From an uncultured Gammaproteobacteria bacterium (lineage in GTDB: Bacteria > Patescibacteriota > Patescibacteriia > UBA1558 > GWA2-36-10): DNA of 64,000 nt. Below are positions 3,362 to 53,483 of the stretch, in pieces. Numbering within the stretch: the first letter of the stretch is position 1; each line of letters starts with the position of its first letter. The stretch lies in the NCBI GenBank assembly GCA_964638415.1, contig CAZWYP010000006.1:2244-66243 (forward strand), written 5' to 3'. The position numbers and the translations under genes were made by a program. The notes beneath the pieces are model-generated. The model did not search any database and was not told the origin of the DNA. It saw only the letters and a program-made list of their open reading frames with translations.

Positions 3362-4837
3362 TTATTTACTTTTTGGCCTCATAGTTGGGAAGAAAATTAC
3401 TTCCTTGATATTCTCCACATTGCCTAAGAGCATAATTAGTCTATCAATACCGATGCCTAAACCGGCCGTAGGCGGCATGCCGTGCTTTAAGGCTTCCACG
3501 AATTCATCATCTGCTCCCTGCGCTTCCTCATCCCCTTTTTTCGCCAAAGCTTTTTGCTCGGCAAAGCGCTCCGCCTGATCCAAAGGATCATTAAGCTCGG
3601 AAAAAGCATTACAGACTTCCGCGGTATTCACTACCAATTGGAAGCGCTCTACATAATTAGGACGATCAGCTATTTTTTTGGCTAAAGGAGAAATTTCAAT
3701 GGGATGATTAATTAAGAAAGTCGGCTGGATAATCTGCGGGCGAATAACTTTTTTATACAACTCATCTAATAATTTACCCCTACCCCAGCTTTTATCTGTC
3801 TTTAAACTCTGCTTTTTAGCCAAAACCATTAAATCTTTATCTGACAGCTTATCTATATCCACCTGGTAATATTTGGTGAATAAATCCTTAAAATCTACCC
3901 GGGGATAAGGATCTTTAAAATTTAAAGTATGCTCTCCGCTTTTTACCTCATAGCTGCCGGTAACAGCTTTAGCTAAAGCTGCCATGAATTTCTCCACAAA
4001 CTCCATCAGTCCCTCATAATCCTGGTAAGCCCAATATGCTTCAATCTGGGTAAATTCCGGATTATGCTGGTGGTCAATGCCTTCATTGCGGAAACAGCGG
4101 GCAATTTCATACACTTTCTCGTAACCGCCAATAATTAATCTTTTAAGATACAATTCCGGGGCAACGCGCAAGTATAGATCTATATCCAAAGCATTATGGT
4201 GGGTTTGGAAAGGCTGAGCAGTTGCACCAGAAGCCACTGCCTGCAGCATTGGCGTATCCACTTCCACAAAGCCAGCTTGGTTATAGTATTGCCGGATAAA
4301 GTCAATTACTTTGCTGCGCAACAGGAAAATATTCTTTACTTCGGGATTAGCCAGCAAATCCAAATATCTTTTTCTAAACCTTAAATCCTGATCTGCCAAG
4401 CCGGAATGTTTATCTGGTAAAGGCAATAGAGCTTTAGCTAGCATCATAACTTGGGAAGCTAAAATGGTCGGCTCGGCAGTTTTAGTCACAAAAGCTTGTC
4501 CGGTAATCTGAATGAAATCCCCTAAGTCAAAATTATCCTTGAAATTTTGGTAAGCTTCTTCGCCTAAATTATCTTTGCGGATAAAGCCCTGCACTTTGCC
4601 AGACTCATCTTCAAAATGCAGAAAGCAGGAACCACCCTGCAAGCGCAAGGAACGAATGCGTCCGGCTAGCACCACGGTTTGCTGGCTCGTAACCAAAGAC
4701 TTGAATTCAGCTAGAAAATCGCCAATAGTTTTATTTCTCTGGCTATTAGCTGGATAAGCAGCAACACCAGCTTTAGCCAATTGCTTTAGCTTTTTTAACC
4801 GCTGCTGGTATTCATCGTTAATATTGTATTCTGTCAT
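3362..4837 (-). CDS. lysS: lysyl-tRNA synthetase, class II
   Basis: 491 aa. OB-fold anticodon-binding N-terminus. Class II motifs (FRNEGID, GGLGIGIDRL). Confidence 0.9.
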   Translation of the reverse strand: MTEYNINDEYQQRLKKLKQLAKAGVAAYPANSQRNKTIGDFLAEFKSLVTSQQTVVLAGRIRSLRLQGGSCFLHFEDESGKVQGFIRKDNLGEEAYQNFKDNFDLGDFIQITGQAFVTKTAEPTILASQVMMLAKALLPLPDKHSGLADQDLRFRKRYLDLLANPEVKNIFLLRSKVIDFIRQYYNQAGFVEVDTPMLQAVASGATAQPFQTHHNALDIDLYLRVAPELYLKRLIIGGYEKVYEIARCFRNEGIDHQHNPEFTQIEAYWAYQDYEGLMEFVEKFMAALAKAVTGSYEVKSGEHTLNFKDPYPRVDFKDLFTKYYQVDIDKLSDKDLMVLAKKQSLKTDKSWGRGKLLDELYKKVIRPQIIQPTFLINHPIEISPLAKKIADRPNYVERFQLVVNTAEVCNAFSELNDPLDQAERFAEQKALAKKGDEEAQGADDEFVEALKHGMPPTAGLGIGIDRLIMLLGNVENIKEVIFFPTMRPKSK

Positions 4838-4927
4838 ATTTTTATTGTCTTTCTGGCTATAATTTTACTGAATTTTTAGCCAAATAGCAAGAAAAATAAT
4901 ACTTTAACAATAAATAAAAACTATCTA

Positions 4928-4956
4928 TTGACAAAATAATTAAAATATGATAGATT
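4928..4956 (+). promoter_or_regulatory. putative sigma70-type promoter (TTGACA-17-TAGATT)
   Basis: Perfect -35 TTGACA at 4928-4933. 17-nt spacer. TAGATT at 4951-4956. Lies upstream of the 5016 start. Confidence 0.35.
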
Positions 4957-5015
4957 ATATTGCTTTGCGTCCTTTGTCAACTTGTCTTGTTTCACCAAGA
5001 AAAGGGAGTCTTTCC

Positions 5016-6629
5016 ATGTTTCGTTTCATTTTCGTGGTTTTGTTTGCCTGCCTGGCAACCATATCCATATCTTCCGCTGAAGTCATTGACAACAACGTTG
5101 TCTGCCAATTGCCCAACTCGTCCTCCTTGGACGATACTTTGGATCAGCAAGTCATGGCCTTTGACGTATTAGTCGGCGACTACGACGATCAGGACAGTAC
5201 AGTTTATGTGGCTTGGACATCATTTCAAGGCGACAACGACCAAACTGTCGTTGCGGCTTACCGAAATGGTGAGGAACTTTGGCGCACAATAGTACCTTTC
5301 CCCGGCGATGCTTATCCCATCGCCGTCAAAATGGTTGGAGGAAGGGTTATTGTTTGTAGCCAAACCGTTTCATCAAACCCATTCGAGACACAACTGTCAA
5401 TCGCGGCAATTGCCAATTTCAATGGTGGCTTTCTGTATTACGGACACGTTACGCCAAGTTATTCCGCTAGTTTGCCATGGCAATTCGAAATGTACACTGC
5501 TCCAAATGATTTATTAATAGACACAGCCGTTGTGATCTGGCATGTGCAAGGAAGCGGATCTTCGTATTTCCAACGCGTCAATGTAGCTGAAAATCCACCC
5601 ACTCTTTTTGACGGCGATGGAACTGCTTTCCCGAATGGCTGTTATGTCAACTCCGACGCCGCCTGGCAAGGTGGGCGCTGGTGGTTTTCCGACTGCGGTA
5701 CAACTATGTACTCAATTAGTCCTACCGAGGGTTTAGTCGGAATAGACACTACTTCTTCCAACTACTGGACTATGTTCAGTGGCAGCGAAGATTCTCTGTG
5801 GGGAGTAACCTTTAATAACGGAATGGTCCTAGAGCACCTGTCAACTTCCGGTGAAGTAAACCCGATAGACACCCGTGTCTTACTCAGTTTACACACAGAT
5901 CCCGATTGGTCATTTCGCATGTCCCACGAACGATTTATTACCGGTGGACGATTCTTGACGACGAGCATGATTGAAGACACGCCATGGCCGTGGTATCACG
6001 TTTCCGTAGGTTGGTATGATTTGGAAACTGGTGGAAATTGGGGCTTTAGTCTACCAACTTACAATCCCCCCATCTCACATGCCGGCGCCATTTCGGACCA
6101 CATGATCGGCCTGATTACAGCTGGCCAAACCACTGTTCGTTTCGACGCTTGGGATATTTTAGACAGCGCTTATACCATCAGCGTTGATTCCATCGGTCCG
6201 CACCAAGATGGTTGGGGCGGCTGGTCAAGAATTTTCCCAGACGGTCACGGTGGGGCTGAGCTATTCTGGACTACTGCCGAAGGCATGGGGCCGGGCACGT
6301 TATATCATTATCACGTCACAAACGTGCAATCGACAAACAACCCAATTCAGACGAACATTCCTATAGACATGTCGCTCGGCCAGAACTACCCCAACCCGTT
6401 CAATCCGACGACGACCATTCCGTTCAACCTGCATCGCGCCGGTCCGGTAACACTGAAAGTATTCAATATTACCGGGCAGTTGGTTGCTACCGTGCTGAAC
6501 AACCAGGTGATGTCGGCCGGACAGCAGCAAGTTAATTTTGACGGCTCGCAGCTGTCCAGCGGCGTTTACGTCTATACCATTTCCAGCGGCAACTTCCAAG
6601 CTGCTCAGAAGATGGTCCTGATGAAATAA
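5016..6629 (+). CDS. secreted protein with T9SS-type (Por) C-terminal sorting domain
   Basis: Start reassigned to the internal Met (MFRFIFVVLFACLATISISSA signal peptide) preceded by a strong SD AAGGGAG 7 nt upstream. C-terminus NYPNPFNPTTTIPF...VYVYTI matches the TIGR04183/Por_Secre_tail motif. Coding GC is visibly higher than that of flanking genes. Confidence 0.7.
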   Translation: MFRFIFVVLFACLATISISSAEVIDNNVVCQLPNSSSLDDTLDQQVMAFDVLVGDYDDQDSTVYVAWTSFQGDNDQTVVAAYRNGEELWRTIVPFPGDAYPIAVKMVGGRVIVCSQTVSSNPFETQLSIAAIANFNGGFLYYGHVTPSYSASLPWQFEMYTAPNDLLIDTAVVIWHVQGSGSSYFQRVNVAENPPTLFDGDGTAFPNGCYVNSDAAWQGGRWWFSDCGTTMYSISPTEGLVGIDTTSSNYWTMFSGSEDSLWGVTFNNGMVLEHLSTSGEVNPIDTRVLLSLHTDPDWSFRMSHERFITGGRFLTTSMIEDTPWPWYHVSVGWYDLETGGNWGFSLPTYNPPISHAGAISDHMIGLITAGQTTVRFDAWDILDSAYTISVDSIGPHQDGWGGWSRIFPDGHGGAELFWTTAEGMGPGTLYHYHVTNVQSTNNPIQTNIPIDMSLGQNYPNPFNPTTTIPFNLHRAGPVTLKVFNITGQLVATVLNNQVMSAGQQQVNFDGSQLSSGVYVYTISSGNFQAAQKMVLMK

Positions 6630-6648
6630 GGCAAGACAATACGATGAA

Positions 6649-6687
6649 AGACCCGTTATCTATGAAGGTAACGGGTCTCTTTTTTAC
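6649..6687 (+). terminator. rho-independent terminator
   Basis: Hairpin gacccgtta...taacgggtc followed by tcttttttact. Confidence 0.6.
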
Positions 6688-6696
6688 TAATAGATA

Positions 6697-7500
6697 CTAT
6701 TTCACTTCCGGTAATTTCTGCCCGCGGAATTTCCAGAAGTATTTAATAAAGCTCAAAATATGTTGGCGGGAATATTTGCTGAAAGCAGTCTTTAAGACAT
6801 TCTCCGCAGCTGACTGGCGGCGATGCAGGTGAATCACTTCCGCCTGACCAACATAAGCTACTTGCCAGCCAGCTTGCCAAAACCTCCGGCACCAGTCAAT
6901 ATCCTCCAAATACATAAAGTATCTTTCATCCAAGAGGCCGACTTTTTCTAAAGCAGCACTGCGTACTAATAAACAAGCGCCGAATAAAGCCGGCACGGGA
7001 AAATTCTGATGATGATCATGATCTTTAAGAAAATAATAATTAAGCCAGTCTTGTCCGGCTTTAGTCTCTGCCAAGGTAGTGCGCCGATAAAGAGGCAGGC
7101 GCCAATCCGGAAAACGAGTGCAGGAATATTGGATAGTTTTGTCAGCATTAATTAGCCGCGGTCCGCATAAGCCGACTTGCGGATTATCTTCCAAATACTG
7201 ATACATAATATTTACCGCATCAGATAGAATGGCCAAATCCGGATTAAGGATGAGAATATACTTGCCCTGCGCCTGCTTAATTCCTAAATTATTACCCGCC
7301 GCAAAACCGCTATTCTTCTTATTCTGAATAAACTTAGCTTGAGGATACTCTTTTACTATCTCCTCCACTCCGTCATAGGAAGCATTGTCCACCACGATTA
7401 TTTCATAACTATGAGGCAATTTTAATTCCGCGATATTCTTTAATAATTCGCGGATCAAGTCTTTATTAAAATAATTAAGAATGACAATAGATAAATCCAT
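6697..7500 (-). CDS. glycosyltransferase family 2
   Basis: Start set to the internal Met (MDLSIVILNYFN) so the gene no longer overlaps the upstream gene. GT-A N-terminal motif and DxD region. Confidence 0.75.
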   Translation of the reverse strand: MDLSIVILNYFNKDLIRELLKNIAELKLPHSYEIIVVDNASYDGVEEIVKEYPQAKFIQNKKNSGFAAGNNLGIKQAQGKYILILNPDLAILSDAVNIMYQYLEDNPQVGLCGPRLINADKTIQYSCTRFPDWRLPLYRRTTLAETKAGQDWLNYYFLKDHDHHQNFPVPALFGACLLVRSAALEKVGLLDERYFMYLEDIDWCRRFWQAGWQVAYVGQAEVIHLHRRQSAAENVLKTAFSKYSRQHILSFIKYFWKFRGQKLPEVK

Positions 7501-7510
7501 TTTATTAAAT

Positions 7511-8497
7511 TTAAACAAACCAGCGCTGCATGTCTTCCGCTTTAATCTGGCGGTATTTTTTAATCTGCCTTTTTTTGTCGCGGAATTTAGGCAATAGCTG
7601 GAAGAATTCAAGCCAGCCTTTCAGCGTAGCTCTTTCCCTTAATAATAAATAGCCAAATTTCTTAAATTCATACCAAATAATTGGAAAAAAATCCTTGAAG
7701 AAATTCTTAGCAAAAGAGTTTTTGTAAATCATTGCCAGATGATTGCGGTAAGACAAGCGATTAGCAAAGCCCCTTTGCTTGCGGAAGCCCAACCCTTTAT
7801 TACTCACTGTCCGATGATGGTAAGCTATGGTTTCTGCTACCAGCCAATTCTCCCAGCCATTCAAGCGCAGGCGCCAAGCCAAATCAATGTCCTCCTTGTA
7901 AGCAAAGAAGTCCTCATCAAAATACTCGTAATTGCCATTGCCCTTGTCGTACTTAATCTTCTCCAGGCACTGGCGCCTAACCAATAAAGCAGTAGCGGAT
8001 AATCCGAAAACTTCCTGATTGATAGGATCATTATCTGGCTGGCCTTGAGCCATGTCTACTACCTGGCGATTGCGGCTTATTTTCAGCCCCAAAGAATCTA
8101 TGGTCTGGGTAAGATTATTGGCATGGAAATCCCAATATAATAGTTTGCCGGAAGCTGACGCAGCCATGGGATTAGCTTCCATAAACGCTACTAACTTCTC
8201 TAAATAGTCATTGGCCAGCATCACATCCTGGTTAAGGAATAGAATATAGTCCGACTTAGACCAGTTAATTAATAAATTGTGGCCTTTGGCAAAACCGATA
8301 TTCTGCTTCTGCTGGATGACTTTGGCCGGTGGATAATACTCCTTCATAGTAGCGACGGAATTATCGGTGGAAGCATTGTCCAAAACCAATAATTCCCAGT
8401 CGGTAAAAGTCTGGTTCTGCAGGCTTTTAATTAACCAGGGCAAATACTGGGCGCCATTCCAAGTTAATAAGCTAATAGTTACTTTAGGCTTGTTCAT
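7511..8497 (-). CDS. glycosyltransferase family 2
   Basis: 328 aa. VTISLLTWNGAQYL...LVLDNASTDNS GT2 signature. Confidence 0.75.
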   Translation of the reverse strand: MNKPKVTISLLTWNGAQYLPWLIKSLQNQTFTDWELLVLDNASTDNSVATMKEYYPPAKVIQQKQNIGFAKGHNLLINWSKSDYILFLNQDVMLANDYLEKLVAFMEANPMAASASGKLLYWDFHANNLTQTIDSLGLKISRNRQVVDMAQGQPDNDPINQEVFGLSATALLVRRQCLEKIKYDKGNGNYEYFDEDFFAYKEDIDLAWRLRLNGWENWLVAETIAYHHRTVSNKGLGFRKQRGFANRLSYRNHLAMIYKNSFAKNFFKDFFPIIWYEFKKFGYLLLRERATLKGWLEFFQLLPKFRDKKRQIKKYRQIKAEDMQRWFV

Positions 8498-14358: not shown

Positions 14359-15123
14359 TTATTCTTCCTCTGCTTCTTCAGTTTCTTCTTCGCTCTTAGC
14401 CTTTTTACCTCTCTTCGCTTTTGGCTTTTCCTCTTCTTCCTTCTTCAACCACAAAGCAAAATGGCTTTCTAAGATAGCGGAAGCTTGGGATAAAGCATCT
14501 TCAGCAGTAATCGTACCGTCAGTAACGACATCCATTACTACTTTTTCATAGTTAGTCATCTTACCCACGCGGACATTCTCAATCTTGTAGCCGACATTTA
14601 ACACTGGAGAAAAACTTGAGTCAATGGCAATGGTACCGATATCCAACTTCTCTTTTTCTCGCTGTTCAACAGTGACATAACCCAAACCGTTCTCCACGGT
14701 AATTTCCATATCCAGATTAGATCCTTTGTCAGTCAAAGTGGCTATTACCAAATCCTTGTTGCTGATTTCCACCTGGGAATTCTTTTCAATATCTCCAGCT
14801 TTTAATACCTTTTCTCCTTTACCAGTTAATCTTAATTTAACCGGTTCTTCAGAATAGACTTTTAAGCGCAGCTGCTTTAAGTTCAACATAATCTCCACTA
14901 CGTCTTCTTTGACGCCGTTAACGGCATCAAATTCATGCTGCACGCCCTGGATCTTAAAAGCAGTAACCGCACCGCCGGATAAGGATGAGAGTAATACTCG
15001 GCGCAAAGCATTGCCGATAGTCACGCCAAAACCGGGATAGAATGGTTCAATAGATACCTGGTAATGGTTATCTTCTTGGCTTAAGATATTAATTTTTTCT
15101 GGTAAAGAAATTTGCTTATTCAT
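14359..15123 (-). CDS. rpoA: DNA-directed RNA polymerase alpha subunit, N-terminal domain only
   Basis: 254 aa. alpha-NTD motifs (GFGVTIGNALRRVLLSS). Ends in a K/E-rich acidic tail with no alpha-CTD. Confidence 0.85.
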   Translation of the reverse strand: MNKQISLPEKINILSQEDNHYQVSIEPFYPGFGVTIGNALRRVLLSSLSGGAVTAFKIQGVQHEFDAVNGVKEDVVEIMLNLKQLRLKVYSEEPVKLRLTGKGEKVLKAGDIEKNSQVEISNKDLVIATLTDKGSNLDMEITVENGLGYVTVEQREKEKLDIGTIAIDSSFSPVLNVGYKIENVRVGKMTNYEKVVMDVVTDGTITAEDALSQASAILESHFALWLKKEEEEKPKAKRGKKAKSEEETEEAEEE

Positions 15124-38500: not shown

Positions 38501-39616
38501 TTAATCTTGAATGCAGCGAACAGAGCCTGCATAAAAATCTCCAGAAATAGCACCTCGATAACGACCTACCGTAGCTAAAGCACTGCTAAAAGTCCGATAC
38601 CAAGCACTACTTAAGCCATATTTAGTAGAAGACCAAATCCAGCCTGTACCGTCTTGATACAAAAACATATATTCATAATTATCCCAAATTCCGCCTAAAA
38701 CATCATTAAATCCAGAGGAACCTCCTGCTTTTAATTTAGTGCCTTCATTGGTTCCTCGCCAACCAGTAGTAGTCGTGTCAATCGGAAAATCAGTAGTACA
38801 GCTGCCAGAAGTACAGACTGCTCTTTCTAAAGTAGTAAATTCATCATGAGTTGGAATATGCCAACCGGTTGGACAAATACCTTGAGCGCCATTAACTTCC
38901 GAGCCACACATCGCTTGTGGCCAGATGTAAATACCACCATCTGCTGTACAATTAGCTTCCGAATCATTATAGCAATACTTTTTAATAGCCGCTGCCGAAA
39001 CGCAACTGTAACCACCAGTACCCCCAGCTACCCTGGTGCCGACATTAAGATTCTGTGCAAACCAGCACTGCGTGCCAATCTGCACAGTTGCATAATTAAC
39101 CCCCTCGTAACTAACCGTATCACCACAAGCAAATCCACCACCACCTTCTTCTCCGGCACTAGCTGTATATTCATAACAATGTTCAACTACAAAACCGGCA
39201 TCGCTTACTCTGGTAATATAATAACCCGTATCATCACCCGTAGCATCAGGATCAATTGGCAATTCACCAATGTACGGCTCCATTAAAGAAGCTAGATCAA
39301 CTCTGGCAATATCCTGACCCAAAGTGGTGCAGGTAGCATTACCGGCAGTGGAACCCCCAGCAGAAACCAGCATATAAGGAGTATTAAGAGTTAAAGCGGC
39401 AATAGCTGCTGGCACTGTGCCATTATTATCTGCTACTAAGGTAGTTAAGCATTTTTCTAACTCATCACAATTCTTATCTCGTAAGGAGTTTTGTGCTTCG
39501 CCAAAACGTCGAGCTGGATCAACTGCAACAAAAACTACCGCCGCCAATACCCCAATAACGGCAATTACTAAAATGATTTCTATTAAAGTAAACCCTTTCT
39601 CTTTACTTAAAAACAT
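38501..39616 (-). CDS. type IV pilin-like protein with C-terminal Fib_succ_major (FISUMP) domain
   Basis: 371 aa. Class III signal plus N-methylation site KG/FTLIEIILVIAVIGVLAAV. C-terminal QCWFAQNLN...CPTGWHIPTHDEF...WSSTKYG...GSVRCIQD matches the TIGR02145 pattern. Confidence 0.7.
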   Translation of the reverse strand: MFLSKEKGFTLIEIILVIAVIGVLAAVVFVAVDPARRFGEAQNSLRDKNCDELEKCLTTLVADNNGTVPAAIAALTLNTPYMLVSAGGSTAGNATCTTLGQDIARVDLASLMEPYIGELPIDPDATGDDTGYYITRVSDAGFVVEHCYEYTASAGEEGGGGFACGDTVSYEGVNYATVQIGTQCWFAQNLNVGTRVAGGTGGYSCVSAAAIKKYCYNDSEANCTADGGIYIWPQAMCGSEVNGAQGICPTGWHIPTHDEFTTLERAVCTSGSCTTDFPIDTTTTGWRGTNEGTKLKAGGSSGFNDVLGGIWDNYEYMFLYQDGTGWIWSSTKYGLSSAWYRTFSSALATVGRYRGAISGDFYAGSVRCIQD

Positions 39617-40454: not shown

Positions 40455-41789
40455 TTATAGACTATTAATAATTTCCCGCAAGGGCTGCATTAAACTGGAA
40501 GAGAATTCTCTATCAGTAATAGCCGATGAGGCCACAATAGCGTTATGTGGTTTATGCTTATCTCTCTGATATTTCCTGGGATAATGCGCTTCAATAGCAC
40601 CATTAGGTAAAACAAAAATATGATTGAGTTTCAATTCTTCAATTAACTGATCTGCATTATTGCTCTTTGGTCTAATCTTTAAATAATTTAAAATATTATT
40701 CAGCTGCCAACCAACTGCATCCCTATCCATGACAATTAAAAATCTGATGTTGAAAATCTTGAGTAATTCAATAAACAGCATCATATTCCCTTTGCCGTGG
40801 GTTTGCACCACCTTTATCTCCTGATCACCGCCATAATAACGATCAATTAAGCCGCGTAATAGGATTCTATCCGATACTCCTTCCACCAAAACTACGGTAT
40901 CGGCAAAAAACATTTCCAAATTATCCGCATCTAATTCCTGGATTAAGCGCTGGCCAAAATAATGACGTTTGGTCAAAGACAAACCAAAAGCTTCCGTACT
41001 CTTTTCGCTTTTTACCACTCTAATTACCTGCGGCAAGGTAATAGCTTTAATAAATAATGGAGAATGGGTAGTGAAGAATATCTGAGCACCACTGCTATTC
41101 TGCATCGCCCACAATAATTTCTTGATTAAAATAGGATGCAAATGAGTTTCTGGTTCGTCAATAATCACCAATTGGTATTCTGGATGGAAGATATAAAGCA
41201 AGATGGTAAAAACCCGGCGGAAGCCGGAACCTAGACGATCTAAGGTGACTTTCCTATCTGCTTCCTGCAGACCAGTTGTCTCATAATTAATATCTAGGGC
41301 ATTCTTGCCAGTAACTATCTTGGGAAAATGTTTAGCTAGATTCTGCTGAAACTCAGCCAAACTCTCCGGATATTTTCGCAGACTCTGCCAATCTTTCTTA
41401 ATCTGATCTAAATTATGAAAATCATTAGAAGTAAGGTGCTTAACTGTCTTTGCTAAATAATTAGCTAATTTTCCTTGGTAAGGCAATACTTTATTGCCAA
41501 AAATTAACTGCCGTTGCTTATTTTTTAACTGTAATAGGCCTTGGCTTAAAGGTAAATTAAATTGTTTCTGCTCTTCTTTGCTAAAATTCAACGCAATTTC
41601 AATATCTGCCTTGGGATAATCTAAAGCCTCACTGGTATCTTTCTTATTAAAAGCATAATCTATAGCATAAAGAATATTACTTTTGCCACAGTTGTTCTGA
41701 CCGATCAAAATACTAATCGGTAAACCAGTCAGTAAAATAGGCTTCTTGATGCTTTTGTAATAATTTATTTTTAGCTTGGCAATGCGCAT
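40455..41789 (-). CDS. OLD-family ATP-dependent endonuclease (AAA_21-type ATPase + TOPRIM)
   Basis: 444 aa. Walker A LIGQNNCGKSNILYAI (P2 Old/GajA-like GxNxxGKSN). Walker B LVIIDEPETHLHP. H-loop FFTTHSP. TOPRIM motifs VVLVEGVSDRILL and LIVMDRDA. Confidence 0.65.
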   Translation of the reverse strand: MRIAKLKINYYKSIKKPILLTGLPISILIGQNNCGKSNILYAIDYAFNKKDTSEALDYPKADIEIALNFSKEEQKQFNLPLSQGLLQLKNKQRQLIFGNKVLPYQGKLANYLAKTVKHLTSNDFHNLDQIKKDWQSLRKYPESLAEFQQNLAKHFPKIVTGKNALDINYETTGLQEADRKVTLDRLGSGFRRVFTILLYIFHPEYQLVIIDEPETHLHPILIKKLLWAMQNSSGAQIFFTTHSPLFIKAITLPQVIRVVKSEKSTEAFGLSLTKRHYFGQRLIQELDADNLEMFFADTVVLVEGVSDRILLRGLIDRYYGGDQEIKVVQTHGKGNMMLFIELLKIFNIRFLIVMDRDAVGWQLNNILNYLKIRPKSNNADQLIEELKLNHIFVLPNGAIEAHYPRKYQRDKHKPHNAIVASSAITDREFSSSLMQPLREIINSL

Positions 41790-43123
41790 TATAGCAATTG
41801 GATATCCTCTATTTCCCTGACCTTGTTATGCAAAACAATATTTTCAATGTGATAAGTTCCCATTTTCGGAGCATCTAAATATCCTTGCATAGCAGCTTCT
41901 GCCAGCCAGCCGGAATTCAGCCAGTCAAACAACCACTCATTGACATATTTGACATCCGGGGCATCAATGCCCGCTCCCAGAGCCAATAACCAATCCCGGT
42001 TATAAAACTCCTGAGAACCTACCGGTGGAGTCATTAAAATAGGAATGCCCAAGCCGCTGTAAAAAGTAAGTTCCGAGGGCTTGGTCCACAGAATATCCGT
42101 TGCTCTTAAGGCTTTGTTGAATAATTTAAAATAGTTCTGCTTGTCTTCAGAAAAGATAATATCAATATTTCTACAATCATTAAGCCGGCAGTCTTTAATG
42201 GCCTTTTGGAAAAAAACATAAACATCATTTCTGGCACCCGCTACTAAATTTAAATGAATTTGCCCAGTCTTAATTTGTCTATGCAATAAATGGGCAATTT
42301 CTGCGCCAATCTCTCTTTGCGCGCCAGCTCCACCCACCGCAAAAGTAATAGTCAATGGACGATTAGGCTTTTTAATGTTGCGAATCGGGCAAAGATAGTC
42401 TTCTAATAATTTTGAGTACTTATGCCGGTAAATTCCTTTGGGATCCAGCATAGCCAAGCGATCTTTTAAATCGCTTTTTAAAATCTTCTGATCCAAGCCT
42501 CCAATGTTCTCCTTAGGCAAAGGAAAGCCAGTGACATAAATATTCTGGGCTTTCACGCCGTACAATAAAAGGCGTTCTCTCACCCGCTTATTGGGAGCTA
42601 AATAGATAATTCTGCTTCTTTTTGGCTCCATTGGCGCCCAGGCTCTGGCGACATCGGCATCGGTAACTACTAGATAAATCTTTTCCGGATAATTATTGTA
42701 TTCTGCTACATAGGCCGGAACAAAAAAAGTAGTCACCATAGGCAATGGTTTTTTGCGCAAAATGTCTATTAAATTCTTGCCCATGCCCCGCTTAATCTTG
42801 CGGTAAAAGAATTTAAGCTGGGAATAAGGCTTAGATAAATCGCGCCGAGGATAAAACGGCTCAATCCTCTGGAAATAGTCCATTAAACGAAAAACCCATG
42901 GGCCGATGATCGGCACATCCTTAAAACGTGAAATCAATTCGTACAAAGTCCGGCTTTCATTCCATTCATACTGCTCGCGGCGAGAAATTCCCTGGTAGAA
43001 ATTAGCATTGATTACCCCATTGGGGCTTGAGCCAGCTAAGGGATGAGCGGCTCGCTGATGGCCATAGCCCATATCCACGGCAACGACATACATTTTATTT
43101 TGTTTTGGTGTTGGCTTGTCCAT
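41789..43123 (-). CDS. GT-B glycosyltransferase, MGDG-synthase/UgtP-like (GT28)
   Basis: 444 aa. N-terminal MYVVAVDMGYGHQRAA (cf. UgtP ILTANYGNGHVQVAK). Mid-region FVPAYVAEY...YLVVTDADVARAW...NIYVTGFPL parallels UgtP. C-terminal GT28 motif GIPILMTPPVGSQEFYNRDWLLALGAG. Its stop overlaps the OLD gene's start (TAATG). Confidence 0.65.
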   Translation of the reverse strand: MDKPTPKQNKMYVVAVDMGYGHQRAAHPLAGSSPNGVINANFYQGISRREQYEWNESRTLYELISRFKDVPIIGPWVFRLMDYFQRIEPFYPRRDLSKPYSQLKFFYRKIKRGMGKNLIDILRKKPLPMVTTFFVPAYVAEYNNYPEKIYLVVTDADVARAWAPMEPKRSRIIYLAPNKRVRERLLLYGVKAQNIYVTGFPLPKENIGGLDQKILKSDLKDRLAMLDPKGIYRHKYSKLLEDYLCPIRNIKKPNRPLTITFAVGGAGAQREIGAEIAHLLHRQIKTGQIHLNLVAGARNDVYVFFQKAIKDCRLNDCRNIDIIFSEDKQNYFKLFNKALRATDILWTKPSELTFYSGLGIPILMTPPVGSQEFYNRDWLLALGAGIDAPDVKYVNEWLFDWLNSGWLAEAAMQGYLDAPKMGTYHIENIVLHNKVREIEDIQLL

Positions 43124-52280: not shown

Positions 52281-53483
52281 ATGAAAAAAATATTATCCTT
52301 ACTACTTATAACCATTGTCTTAGCGGGTTGTACCCCTAAAGGTTATGGAGAATTAAGTAAATTTCTTCGTCCAGATATTAAGGACGATTTCTGTGGAGTA
52401 CATATTAATTTTCAATACTGTAAATGTGCCTTCCATAATGAATACTGTGATGCTATTGGTTTAGACAAAGGGGCTGCTAAATCTTATGTCTATTCAGAAT
52501 ATGATAAGTGGATCAATGACTTACTAGCTACTTTTGAGACTAGTTGTACTACTGCTGGTGGTTTTTACACCGATGAAGCTTGTCAGTACTGTACTGACGG
52601 TTATGTATCAAATGGTGAAGATTGTGTAGATCAAACTGTCTTAGCTGAAAAAGGATCAGAAGAAATAGCAAATAATACTGGCGAAGAACTATTTGATGCA
52701 GACTGTAATCTTAATCAGGAGTTATTTGATCAAGATTGGCGTAAATACTCTGACATTGATGATGTTATTCCTTTTGAAGAAAGAAGTTATGAAGCTAAAC
52801 AAGCAGTCACTGCCTATGAAAACATGATAGAAAAAATGGTCTTAGCCTTTGAATTAGAAAGAGATATTGAAATAGAAAATCAAATGCAGACAGAATTAAC
52901 TGAATATAGAACTGCTTTAGTTAATAATATTAAAACTAACTTATTAAAAGCTTTTTGGAGACTATCTTGGGTAACTTACAACACCATCCAAAGCGGTAAA
53001 GGCTTGGGCCAATCTTACACTCAGGTATTAAATGCCAGCGAAGCAGCCGAAGCAGTAGGCGCTGGTTTAAAAGTAGTTCAAGGAGTAATTCCCGGTAATT
53101 CTTCTTTAGCTATTGATACTTCCGACTTTAGTGGCAAAGTGGAATCAGTTGGTGTTAATGTGGCTTTAGAAGCAGTAGACACTTTAGGTGACCCAGTTAA
53201 AGTAGCTACTGAATTATTTAAGAGCGCAGCATCAGCACCTCTACCTTCCGCTGATATCTCAGAAGAAGAAATAAACATCCTAAGAGAACAACATCTAAAT
53301 AAAGGTGTGATAGATAAAGCACTAGCTGACAGCCAAGCAGCTAATAATGAACGACAAACAAAACTTAATCAGTTAGAGACGGAAATAGTTGAATTACAAA
53401 CTCAAATAGATGAATGGGAGGCCAAAGAAAAAGACCGAGTCAAAGCTGGATTAGAAAATACTTGTGAGAATGGAAATTTGTAA
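52281..53483 (+). CDS. hypothetical lipoprotein with Cys-rich N-domain and C-terminal coiled coil
   Basis: 400 aa. Lipobox LAGC at residues 14-17. 16 Cys in the first 130 residues. C-terminal heptad-like region (NERQTKLNQLETEIVELQTQIDEWEAKEKD). Confidence 0.5.
   Translation: MKKILSLLLITIVLAGCTPKGYGELSKFLRPDIKDDFCGVHINFQYCKCAFHNEYCDAIGLDKGAAKSYVYSEYDKWINDLLATFETSCTTAGGFYTDEACQYCTDGYVSNGEDCVDQTVLAEKGSEEIANNTGEELFDADCNLNQELFDQDWRKYSDIDDVIPFEERSYEAKQAVTAYENMIEKMVLAFELERDIEIENQMQTELTEYRTALVNNIKTNLLKAFWRLSWVTYNTIQSGKGLGQSYTQVLNASEAAEAVGAGLKVVQGVIPGNSSLAIDTSDFSGKVESVGVNVALEAVDTLGDPVKVATELFKSAASAPLPSADISEEEINILREQHLNKGVIDKALADSQAANNERQTKLNQLETEIVELQTQIDEWEAKEKDRVKAGLENTCENGNL

Follow-up and report, generated by a model that had tools for sequence, protein, structure and literature searches.

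The gene at 5016–6629 of the window, by which we mean the whole 64,000-nt stretch of DNA analysed here, is best read as a self-contained CPR cassette, in which a long-resident, FCB-type C-terminal domain (CTD) is kept under purifying selection, the passenger has been exchanged, and the CTD probably acts without a canonical translocon. We put the probability of this reading at about 0.6. The T9SS CTD is taken to mark an outer-membrane secretion system that is limited to Bacteroidota and allied phyla of the FCB group. On sequence evidence, the gene appears to belong to a lineage-maintained, passenger-swapping cassette family, and to be neither a recent one-off transfer nor a relic. The parts of the cassette and its two flanking genes are as follows.

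3362–4837, minus strand: lysS (LysRS), a conserved flank that is divergent from the cassette and serves as the synteny anchor.
4928–4956, plus strand: sigma-70-type promoter, TTGACA, a 17-nt spacer and TG-n-TAGATT (10/12 positions, extended -10).
5002–5008, plus strand: Shine-Dalgarno (SD) sequence AAGGGAG, 7 nt before the ATG (duplex dG -8.5).
5016–5078, plus strand: predicted Sec (SPI-type) signal peptide, residues 1–21, cleavage between SSA and EV, read from the sequence.
5079–6350, plus strand: orphan passenger domain, residues 22–445 (424 aa), delimited by sequence searches and composition.
6351–6626, plus strand: type-A T9SS-class CTD, residues 446–537, assigned by profile HMMs, motifs and fold.
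6649–6686, plus strand: intrinsic terminator with a 13-bp stem, a 4-nt loop and a T run (hairpin at 6649–6678, dG -20.2 kcal/mol).
6697–7611, minus strand: GT2 glycosyltransferase, the other conserved flank and first gene of a conserved GT/flippase cluster.

The open reading frame (ORF) runs from the ATG at 5016 to the TAA at 6629, encodes 537 aa, and is the most compositionally deviant gene of the window. Its GC content is 0.493, whereas the 48 other window ORFs average 0.398 (sd 0.026), which places it at z = 3.6, and its region ranks first of 312 sliding windows both in tetranucleotide distance (z = 6.2) and in GC. The non-uniform composition that a first-pass annotation had reported, with a GC markedly above that of the neighbours, is therefore borne out. 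GC3 is 0.530, where 0.415 would be expected from the protein's own amino-acid sequence and host codon usage (z = 5.9); it reaches 0.707 in the CTD-coding part, and the synonymous-codon likelihood of the ORF is the lowest among the window genes. The codons singled out by the annotation as the mark of this gene are not what sets it apart, however, as all three occur at host-like frequency (CCG 0.31 vs 0.31, GGC 0.39 vs 0.40 and CGC 0.38 vs 0.32 in the host). The excess falls on CTG, TCC, TCG, GCC and GTC, and TTA, TCT and CCT are underused.

GC steps abruptly at both ends of the ORF, as it would in an assembly or binning chimera carrying a GC-rich segment from another organism, an origin the annotation had considered. 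We give this next to no credence. A contig from run SRR10064596, built by a second assembler (Logan), is 100% identical over window positions 3514–8001, both junctions included, and the arrangement of lysS and cassette recurs in contigs of other runs and metagenomes (ERR14369873, JAEAMF01, Ga0233431, Ga0208246 and Ga0075911). The intergenic DNA on either side of the gene is, moreover, AT-rich and host-like.

The expression signals named by the annotation were all recovered. The perfect -35 hexamer TTGACA at 4928–4933, with a TAGATT -10 ending at 4956, forms the best promoter site between 4000 and 8000, a region in which the count of promoter-like sites equals the shuffle expectation. The site gains support because it is conserved in a relative, L048, where the block TATTGACAAAATA...TATG is also kept; promoters of this type are generic across the host clade. 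The public gene call begins at an ATG at 4947; the promoter lies downstream of this ATG, which favours the start at 5016. A duplex dG of -6 or below is found in only 3 of 49 window genes, this ORF included, compared with 9% of random positions, so the host is truly SD-poor. In its relatives, an SD precedes 10/10 cassette genes examined, and the L048 counterpart reads CAGGGAG. The tight terminator behind the ORF has a dG z-score of -4.5, with 0/200 shuffles equally stable, and every sister cassette has a hairpin and T run of its own at the same place.

The encoded protein begins with a putative signal peptide, MFRFIFVVLFACLATISISSA followed by EV, assigned by eye; residues 1–21 fit such a peptide, in line with the annotation. 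The MFRF protein start is common to the ORF, L048 and a further relative, L052. The passenger that follows is acidic (pI 4.2) and predicted to be all-beta, with 1 Lys and 18 Trp in 424 aa. It matched only itself in a word-indexed search of 5.8 billion proteins and in a full, exhaustive HMMER search of 1.84 billion representative proteins, and had 0 matches to PDB sequences by phmmer at E up to 10. Against Pfam and NCBIfam, the whole protein matched only CTD-class families, the passenger being without a Pfam match. In the homology searches that the annotation had proposed for the two domains, no full-length homologue emerged from a possible donor lineage and only the CTD has homologues. When the passenger was examined for internal repeats, the outcome was borderline: the best segment pair scored 45 against 36.2 ± 5.1, a value reached by 10 of 200 shuffles. 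An AF2 model of the full-length protein made with no alignment had a pLDDT of 34.6 and was unusable. The passenger would offer a true orphan extracellular domain of 424 aa for structural study.

The CTD was recognised by two profiles, scoring 46.8 bits against PF18962 (cut-off 27; residues 458–534) and 43.3 bits against TIGR04183 (cut-off 23), the family the annotation had named. The match stops 3 residues short of the C-terminus, in a protein with a putative N-terminal Sec signal peptide. The stretches NYPNPFNP and SGVYVY and the terminal KMVLMK correspond to motifs B, D and E, defined as PNPF, SGxYxY and terminal lysines, respectively (PMC10202324), and their columns show no variation, or almost none, among 32 CTDs. 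Modelled by AF2 from this 32-sequence alignment, the CTD has a pLDDT of 82, with a core above 90, and adopts an Ig-like beta-sandwich of six long strands and short N-terminal strands. When the model was searched against the PDB with Foldseek, the matches were Ig-like domains; among them were the CTD of a T9SS substrate, 8glk_D, at 25% identity and that of RgpB, 7pq4, at 26%. The Ig-like fold class, seven-stranded in type-A CTDs, is common, so that the fold test does not discriminate. Beyond the host lineage, those CTD matches that carry a name are from the FCB group.

The locus itself points to an inserted element. In about 12 relatives (L059-62, L065-68, L070-72 and L083), the gap between the glycosyltransferase gene GT2a and lysS is roughly 100 bp long and empty. 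In at least 5 other relatives, one to three genes of the same design occupy this site; CTD genes fill it in the window, L048, L052, L056/57 and L054. On a rough NJ tree of LysRS, the genomes with a filled site are spread over at least 2 distinct clades. Judging from these comparisons of gene order, the ORF is an insertion relative to the ancestral order, and the interval between the GT cluster and lysS appears to be an insertion hot spot. We found no flanking direct or inverted repeats at the cassette in the window and no mobility genes in the 64 kb; an IS110 transposase occurs only in the island of L054, together with three CTD genes and a C25 peptidase.

Comparison with L048 shows conserved ends and an exchanged middle. 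Its LysRS is 84.6% identical in amino acids to that of the window, nucleotide identity is 79% on average upstream, over a stretch that takes in the -35 box, SD and MFRF start, and BLASTP puts the CTDs at 71% identity (76% across the final 88 aa, 76% in nucleotides), with homology continuing 24 nt beyond the stop. Between these ends, the two passengers align no better than chance (Smith-Waterman score 36 vs 40.3 ± 6.2 for shuffles). For the CTD pair, pN is 0.16, pS 0.70 and dN/dS 0.09, with synonymous sites saturated. These values and the invariant motif residues suggest that purifying selection maintains the CTD, in organisms with no known T9SS, and that it is neither junk nor a decaying relic; they speak against the non-functional CTD that the annotation had allowed for, and its alternative, a repurposed CTD, is the reading we favour. 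In L052, an equally close relative, the CTD is only 44–47% identical to that of the window, so re-acquisition or replacement fits as well as vertical descent, and an NJ tree of the CTDs is star-like and does not separate single from multiple acquisitions.

The sister cassettes (the genes of L048/P0002, P0003, L050a, L052, L056/57, L084 and L054) resemble the ORF in having an SD, a signal peptide, a Lys-poor acidic passenger, a GC3-rich CTD and a terminator of their own. Their CTDs likewise end in K-x-x-L-x-K, and for most the site adjoins lysS; L048 additionally shares the promoter and the MFRF start. Lysine makes up 0–1.2% of the cassette family, compared with 7.3% of host proteins and a median of 2.9% in other CTD proteins. 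The GC3 of the cassettes exceeds that of the host in every relative, although the hosts themselves have very different GC. High GC and GC3 are therefore family-wide and do not date the transfer. The sister passengers are homologous to one another (E 1e-7 to 1e-95) and carry a dockerin-like DxDGDG motif, whereas the window passenger is unrelated to them. We tried it as a diverged member of their family, which shares about 150–280 aa, and rejected this: blastp gave no match at E 1e-2 or better, hmmsearch scored -0.8 bits, and the hhalign probability was 0.06%.

Horizontal acquisition, as the annotation had proposed it, holds in part. The gene is extra at a site whose GT2 and lysS flanks adjoin in relatives, and its named CTD matches are of the FCB group. 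A recent one-off event is not supported, given that promoter, SD, signal-peptide start and CTD all recur in L048 at the corresponding position. A recent acquisition from a T9SS-bearing FCB donor, with the CTD as a non-functional relic, would account for a composition more deviant than that of any other window gene, for a gene added to the ancestral synteny, for the FCB-group names of the outside CTD matches and for the transposase in the L054 island; the L056 CTD, with a GC3 of 0.85 in a host at 0.22–0.30, even looks freshly imported. We nevertheless consider it quite unlikely, since a relative at synonymous saturation has promoter, SD, signal peptide and CTD in common with the ORF, at a low CTD dN/dS, the promoter type is native to the clade, the GC excess extends through the family without decay towards host values, and no sampled donor offers a homologue of the passenger.

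The host, as judged from DnaK and conserved synteny, appears to be a Parcubacteria/Komeilibacteria-like CPR bacterium. The named top matches of its DnaK (79–82% identity) all belong to Patescibacteria, Parcubacteria or Komeilibacteria. A LysRS scan of GTDB representatives returned nothing closer than 48% identity, and the organism and its near relatives are therefore absent from those species representatives. The window carries the dcw cluster and pilin-like genes. Among the 48 further ORFs that reach 150 aa, we found no T9SS families, in agreement with the annotation, and no outer-membrane families; the core components SprA/Sov, PorV, PorU and PorK/L/M/N or GldK-N are all among the families without a match there. 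CPR cells imaged so far are without an outer membrane (PMC7906910), and the CPR have been placed in a monoderm clade (bioRxiv 10.1101/2021.05.31.446380). By taxonomy and literature, an outer membrane is not expected in the host; the T9SS is an outer-membrane system, and its CTD is recognised in the periplasm (PMC10202324). Our literature search on the T9SS or its CTD in CPR, Patescibacteria or Parcubacteria retrieved nothing relevant. One Parcubacteria paper names Por CTD proteins, but for SAR406.

Were this lineage, unlike other CPR, to have an outer membrane and a T9SS elsewhere in its genome, the protein would be ordinary T9SS cargo. The CTD motifs for PorV/PorM recognition (PMC10202324) are intact and under selection, and one relative, L054, has several cassettes and a C25-family peptidase, both points in its favour. 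We regard this as very unlikely in view of the envelope of CPR cells and the gene content of the window described above; furthermore, the C25 protein of L054 has no match to the PorU model NF033707, and contigs of 0.4–0.85 Mb in relatives imply very small genomes.

The same L054 gene, which carries Peptidase_C25 and Propeptide_C25 domains and lies inside the cassette array, raises the idea of a cut-down sortase-like pathway. Once Sec has exported the protein, a PorU-like C25 cysteine transpeptidase would cut off the CTD and attach the cargo to a surface glycan, itself the product of the neighbouring GT/flippase cluster. With no lysine, the passengers would escape off-target amine attack or a Lys-specific, gingipain-like protease. 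PorU resolves its thioester with primary amines (PMC10202324), the cassette locus always adjoins the GT cluster, and the lysine avoidance is extreme and convergent, all of which would suit this pathway. The C25 protein, however, was seen in one relative only and falls outside the PorU model, the 64-kb window holds no C25 gene, and adjacency to the GT cluster may merely reflect the position of the hot spot. We think the pathway improbable.

Equally, the CTD-tagged proteins could be host-directed effectors of an episymbiont, docking by molecular mimicry on the PorV/T9SS or surface structures of a Gram-negative FCB host. Attachment of CPR cells to Gram-negative hosts is documented (PMC7906910), selection conserves the CTD's recognition motifs in a cell expected to have no use for them, and interaction genes typically show variable passengers at a hot spot. 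As CTD recognition is normally periplasmic (PMC10202324), the sites would be out of reach from outside, and we hold out little hope for this explanation. A broader scheme, which we also consider unlikely, is that a clade of CPR episymbionts with no outer membrane maintains swappable cassettes of signal peptide, lysine-free passenger and T9SS CTD. The CTD would be a functional address tag in a non-canonical pathway, either for a minimal PorU-like transpeptidase system that anchors cargo to the surface glycan of the symbiont itself or for docking on the T9SS or PorV of a Gram-negative FCB host, and the conserved cassette ends would be recombination arms through which passengers are exchanged.

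In the cassette reading that we prefer, the CTD module would originally have been acquired from FCB-group-like organisms and would have resided in the lineage long enough for its synonymous sites to saturate, with the passenger exchanged between the conserved cassette ends. The protein would be exported by Sec across a single membrane, and its Ig-like CTD could then act as a surface-retention, sorting or binding module with no canonical outer-membrane translocon. Several CPR genomes would keep a T9SS-type tag at one fixed hot spot by purifying selection. If these genomes are truly without a T9SS, the CTD either has a second role, in surface anchoring or binding, that needs no T9SS, or it acts on a host that has one. 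Both possibilities matter for our view of how ultra-small symbionts construct their surface and make contact with hosts, and CTD counts in metagenomes would then be an unsafe guide to the presence of a T9SS or to taxonomy. The cassettes also suggest that a gene family can stably retain atypical GC and GC3, which are then not a clock for recent transfer.

[quoted passage not shown] Unlike such cargo, it is found in a CPR/Parcubacteria host, a group reported to be without an outer membrane, and in a window without a T9SS gene; it has a strong SD and an orphan, nearly lysine-free passenger, and is a member of a cassette family that is specific to CPR and sits at a fixed hot spot of the chromosome. 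The FlgD Ig-like domain (PF13860) and the CHU_C type-B CTD (PF13585) are of the same beta-sandwich class and match the same C-terminal stretch more weakly, at 17.8 and 20.6 bits, respectively, against a cut-off of 27. Given the weaker FlgD_ig matches, the CTD might serve simply as a generic Ig-like module; among the profiles compared, the type-A model is clearly the best.

The gene on the plus strand at 5016–6629 was inserted at a hot spot beside lysS and belongs to a cassette family of CPR bacteria. [quoted passage not shown] The gene and its closest counterpart, on the metagenome contig L048, extend as follows:

ATG 5016 to TAA 6629, plus strand: target gene, 537 aa
L048:1104–2411: cassette gene of the relative, 435 aa, beginning 100 codons before the publicly annotated start

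The longest possible ORF of the target starts at ATG 4947, which the public call P0001 (560 aa) takes. From the sequence we prefer ATG 5016, because AAGGGAG lies upstream at the proper spacing, the product then opens with a signal peptide, two relatives use the identical MFRF start, and a predicted −10 box (4951–4956) sits downstream of 4947. The public 5′ ends of both genes appear wrong: P0001 begins 23 codons too early (4947–5015), upstream of the −10 box, and P0002, the call on L048, begins 100 codons too late (L048 1104–1403), so that its signal peptide was missed.

The TTGACA −35 hexamer reported in the first-pass annotation is present, and TTGACA/TG-TAGATT is the top promoter match in the region. 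Promoter-like sites there are no commoner than in shuffles; the promoter is credible because it is conserved in L048. The claim of a strong SD among SD-poor neighbours is strongly upheld, as an anti-SD duplex of −6 kcal/mol or below is found in only 3 of 49 genes, the target included, a lower share than the 9% of random positions. Across the 49 ORF starts of the whole window, host genes are essentially without SD and have A/T-rich upstream regions instead. The terminator was likewise recovered: a stem of 13 bp and a T run (−20.2 kcal/mol, z = −4.5). A second GC-rich gene, at 1298–2017 on the minus strand (GC 0.483), has the strong SD AAAGGAG (−8.8); its product, a membrane protein of 239 aa, has a low-complexity Ala/Lys/Asp/Ser linker and no Pfam family. 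Because this gene separates alr from serS, which adjoin one another in relatives, it is probably another inserted gene.

The target is a genuine gene on a sound contig. A chimeric contig, proposed earlier as an alternative to horizontal transfer, is refuted by an independent Logan assembly of SRR10064596, in which a 4,488-bp contig covering lysS, the target and the GT2 glycosyltransferase gene is 100% identical to window positions 3514–8001; the lysS–cassette junction is also seen in independent metagenomes. P0002 was the best non-self match in the first protein search, with a CTD 71% identical to that of the target (BLASTP). It sits on L048, a 2.5-kb contig from another run whose second gene encodes part of a LysRS that shares 84.6% identity with the window LysRS. 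The intergenic regions of the two average 79% identity, spanning TATTGACAAAATA, the SD and ATGTTTCGTTTC (MFRF). Similarity returns at the CTD (76% nucleotide identity) and extends 24 nt beyond the stop codon. The passengers show no similarity (local alignment score 36 versus 40.3 ± 6.2 for shuffles), and homologues of the window passenger were absent from 5.8 billion word-indexed proteins, 1.84 billion representatives (HMMER) and the PDB sequences. The target thus has conserved ends and a unique passenger. The passengers of L048, the public protein P0003, L050a, L052, L056, L084 and two L054 genes are mutually homologous and have a dockerin-like DxDGDG motif; membership of the window passenger in this group was rejected (hmmsearch −0.8 bits, hhalign probability 0.06%).

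Scanning metagenomes with an alignment of LysRS sequences yielded 66 loci. About 12 relatives (LysRS 62–69% identical) share the order flippase-GT1-GT1-GT2-GT2-GT2-lysS-serS-alr, in which the last GT2 gene and lysS are separated by only about 100 bp. This gap is filled at the following loci (LysRS identities in brackets):

L052: one CTD gene with an MFRF start (84%)
L056, L057: one CTD gene apiece (70%)
L054: an IS110-family transposase, three CTD genes and a Peptidase_C25/propeptide protein (74%)
L054, 197–9697, minus strand: extent of this island, which adjoins lysS
L084: a partial cassette gene
L055, L058: small unrelated ORFs

One of the three CTD genes in the L054 island has Sortilin/BNR repeats. 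Filled sites occur in at least two separate clades of a rough LysRS neighbour-joining tree, so that parsimony on this approximate tree favours an ancestrally empty site filled more than once. In L050, two tandem cassettes with an unchanged promoter type and AT-rich spacers lie by a different housekeeping gene; the family is therefore multi-copy and not bound to one site. Although L052 is equally close by LysRS, its CTD is only 44–47% identical to that of the window, which argues that whole cassettes, and not passengers alone, are sometimes replaced. Horizontal acquisition is supported, in that the gene is extra to a conserved gene order, but not as a recent event. In L052–L083, the gene after lysS encodes one of two SerRS types among close relatives (66–86% versus 36–40% identity to the window SerRS), which suggests that serS was replaced within the clade.

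With a GC of 0.493 against 0.398 ± 0.026 in 48 other ORFs (z = 3.6), the target ranks first of 312 gene-length sliding windows for GC and for tetranucleotide distance (z = 6.2), and composition along the window is not uniform. Amino-acid composition does not explain this, because GC3 (0.530) exceeds the 0.415 expected from the target's own protein sequence and host codon usage (z = 5.9); its synonymous-codon likelihood is the worst in the window. The first-pass annotation, whose observation was confirmed overall, erred in one detail: the codons that it named, CCG, GGC and CGC, are at host frequency, and the true shifts are toward CTG, TCC, TCG, GCC and GTC.

Anomalous composition is a stable feature of the cassette family. 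An SD (−6.4 to −11.6 kcal/mol) and a signal peptide are present in all 10 cassette genes examined, and the cassettes are all GC-richer than their hosts (0.528 versus 0.347 in L056, 0.499 versus 0.428 in L052, 0.464 versus 0.33 in L048). The CTD-coding part is the most extreme in GC3 (window 0.707 versus 0.41, L056 0.851 versus 0.22–0.30, L048 0.50 versus 0.21). An offset of about +0.29 over host GC3 persists in both the window and L048 copies despite saturated synonymous sites, so simple un-ameliorated foreign DNA is no explanation and composition cannot date the transfer. Repeated re-acquisition, GC-biased gene conversion in a recombining family, or selection are possible sources. Lysine is scarce in the passengers: only 1 of the 424 residues of the window passenger is K, and other cassette passengers have 0–1.2%, against 7.3% in host proteins, 2.4% in the window's next most lysine-poor protein and a median of 2.9% in 117 CTD proteins elsewhere. 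This extreme avoidance is common to non-homologous passengers and is not seen in the window's other secreted proteins. Since the window passenger is unrelated to the others, the avoidance is convergent, which points to a constraint from pathway or environment.

All named top matches of the window's DnaK are Patescibacteria/Parcubacteria (79–82% identity), several of them Candidatus Komeilibacteria. The window contains a dcw cluster, rpoA, rpsD, many glycosyltransferases, pilin-like proteins and a PilB-like ATPase, together with the following genes:

38501–39616, minus strand: protein joining a type IV pilin-like N-terminal methylation motif to a Fib_succ_major domain (Fibrobacter succinogenes major paralogous domain), a further FCB-associated domain in a CPR genome; at 2.4% K, the second most lysine-poor protein of the window
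14359–15123, minus strand: RpoA ORF of only 254 aa, with N-terminal and insert domains and no alpha C-terminal domain by Pfam at E 1e-5
40455–43123, minus strand: AAA_15/AAA_21 ATPase with an OLD-type TOPRIM domain, adjoining a DUF6938 protein, a pair that looks defence-like
52281–53483, plus strand: 400-aa orphan lipoprotein with a LAGC lipobox and no Pfam family, after tRNA-Thr and tRNA-Trp; GC3 unusually low (0.217)

CPR cells imaged by cryo-TEM have no outer membrane (PMC7906910), and CPR have been assigned to a monoderm clade (bioRxiv 10.1101/2021.05.31.446380). Because T9SS operates in the outer membrane and recognises its CTD in the periplasm (PMC10202324), a T9SS tag is unexpected in this host and, judged by taxonomy, the target protein should not be a T9SS substrate. 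As first noted, no T9SS components are found among the window's 48 remaining ORFs of 150 aa or more, and in the literature covered by our search no T9SS CTD was described from CPR bacteria. The chief risk to our reading is that the lineage may have a T9SS after all. The C25 protein of L054 (786 aa, Peptidase_C25 plus Propeptide_C25) is a lead toward a PorU-like, sortase-only pathway, but it does not match the PorU model.

The CTD is a genuine domain of the type-A class, and selection acts on it. Comparison of the window with L048 gives it a pN of 0.16 and a pS of 0.70 (dN/dS ~0.09), and in LysRS, too, synonymous sites are saturated (pS 0.79); purifying selection has therefore retained the tag over a long period, which contradicts the earlier proposal that it may be non-functional. 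We favour instead the reading that it is repurposed. The module presumably came originally from FCB-type T9SS cargo; Sec would export the protein, which would remain extracellular, and the CTD could serve in retention, sorting or binding independently of the canonical translocon. The assignment of the domain itself holds, as the last 80 residues exceed the curated cut-offs of PF18962 and TIGR04183. The type-A motif residues (PNPF, SGxYxY and the terminal lysines) are present and invariant across a 32-sequence alignment, with which AF2 confidently predicted a beta-sandwich (pLDDT 82, core >90). PDB matches of the model are Ig-like domains, including a T9SS substrate CTD (8glk_D) and the RgpB CTD (7pq4); they are consistent with type-A membership but non-discriminating, because the Ig-like fold class is common. 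By sequence, motifs and predicted fold, the C-terminal domain of the target belongs to the type-A CTD family.
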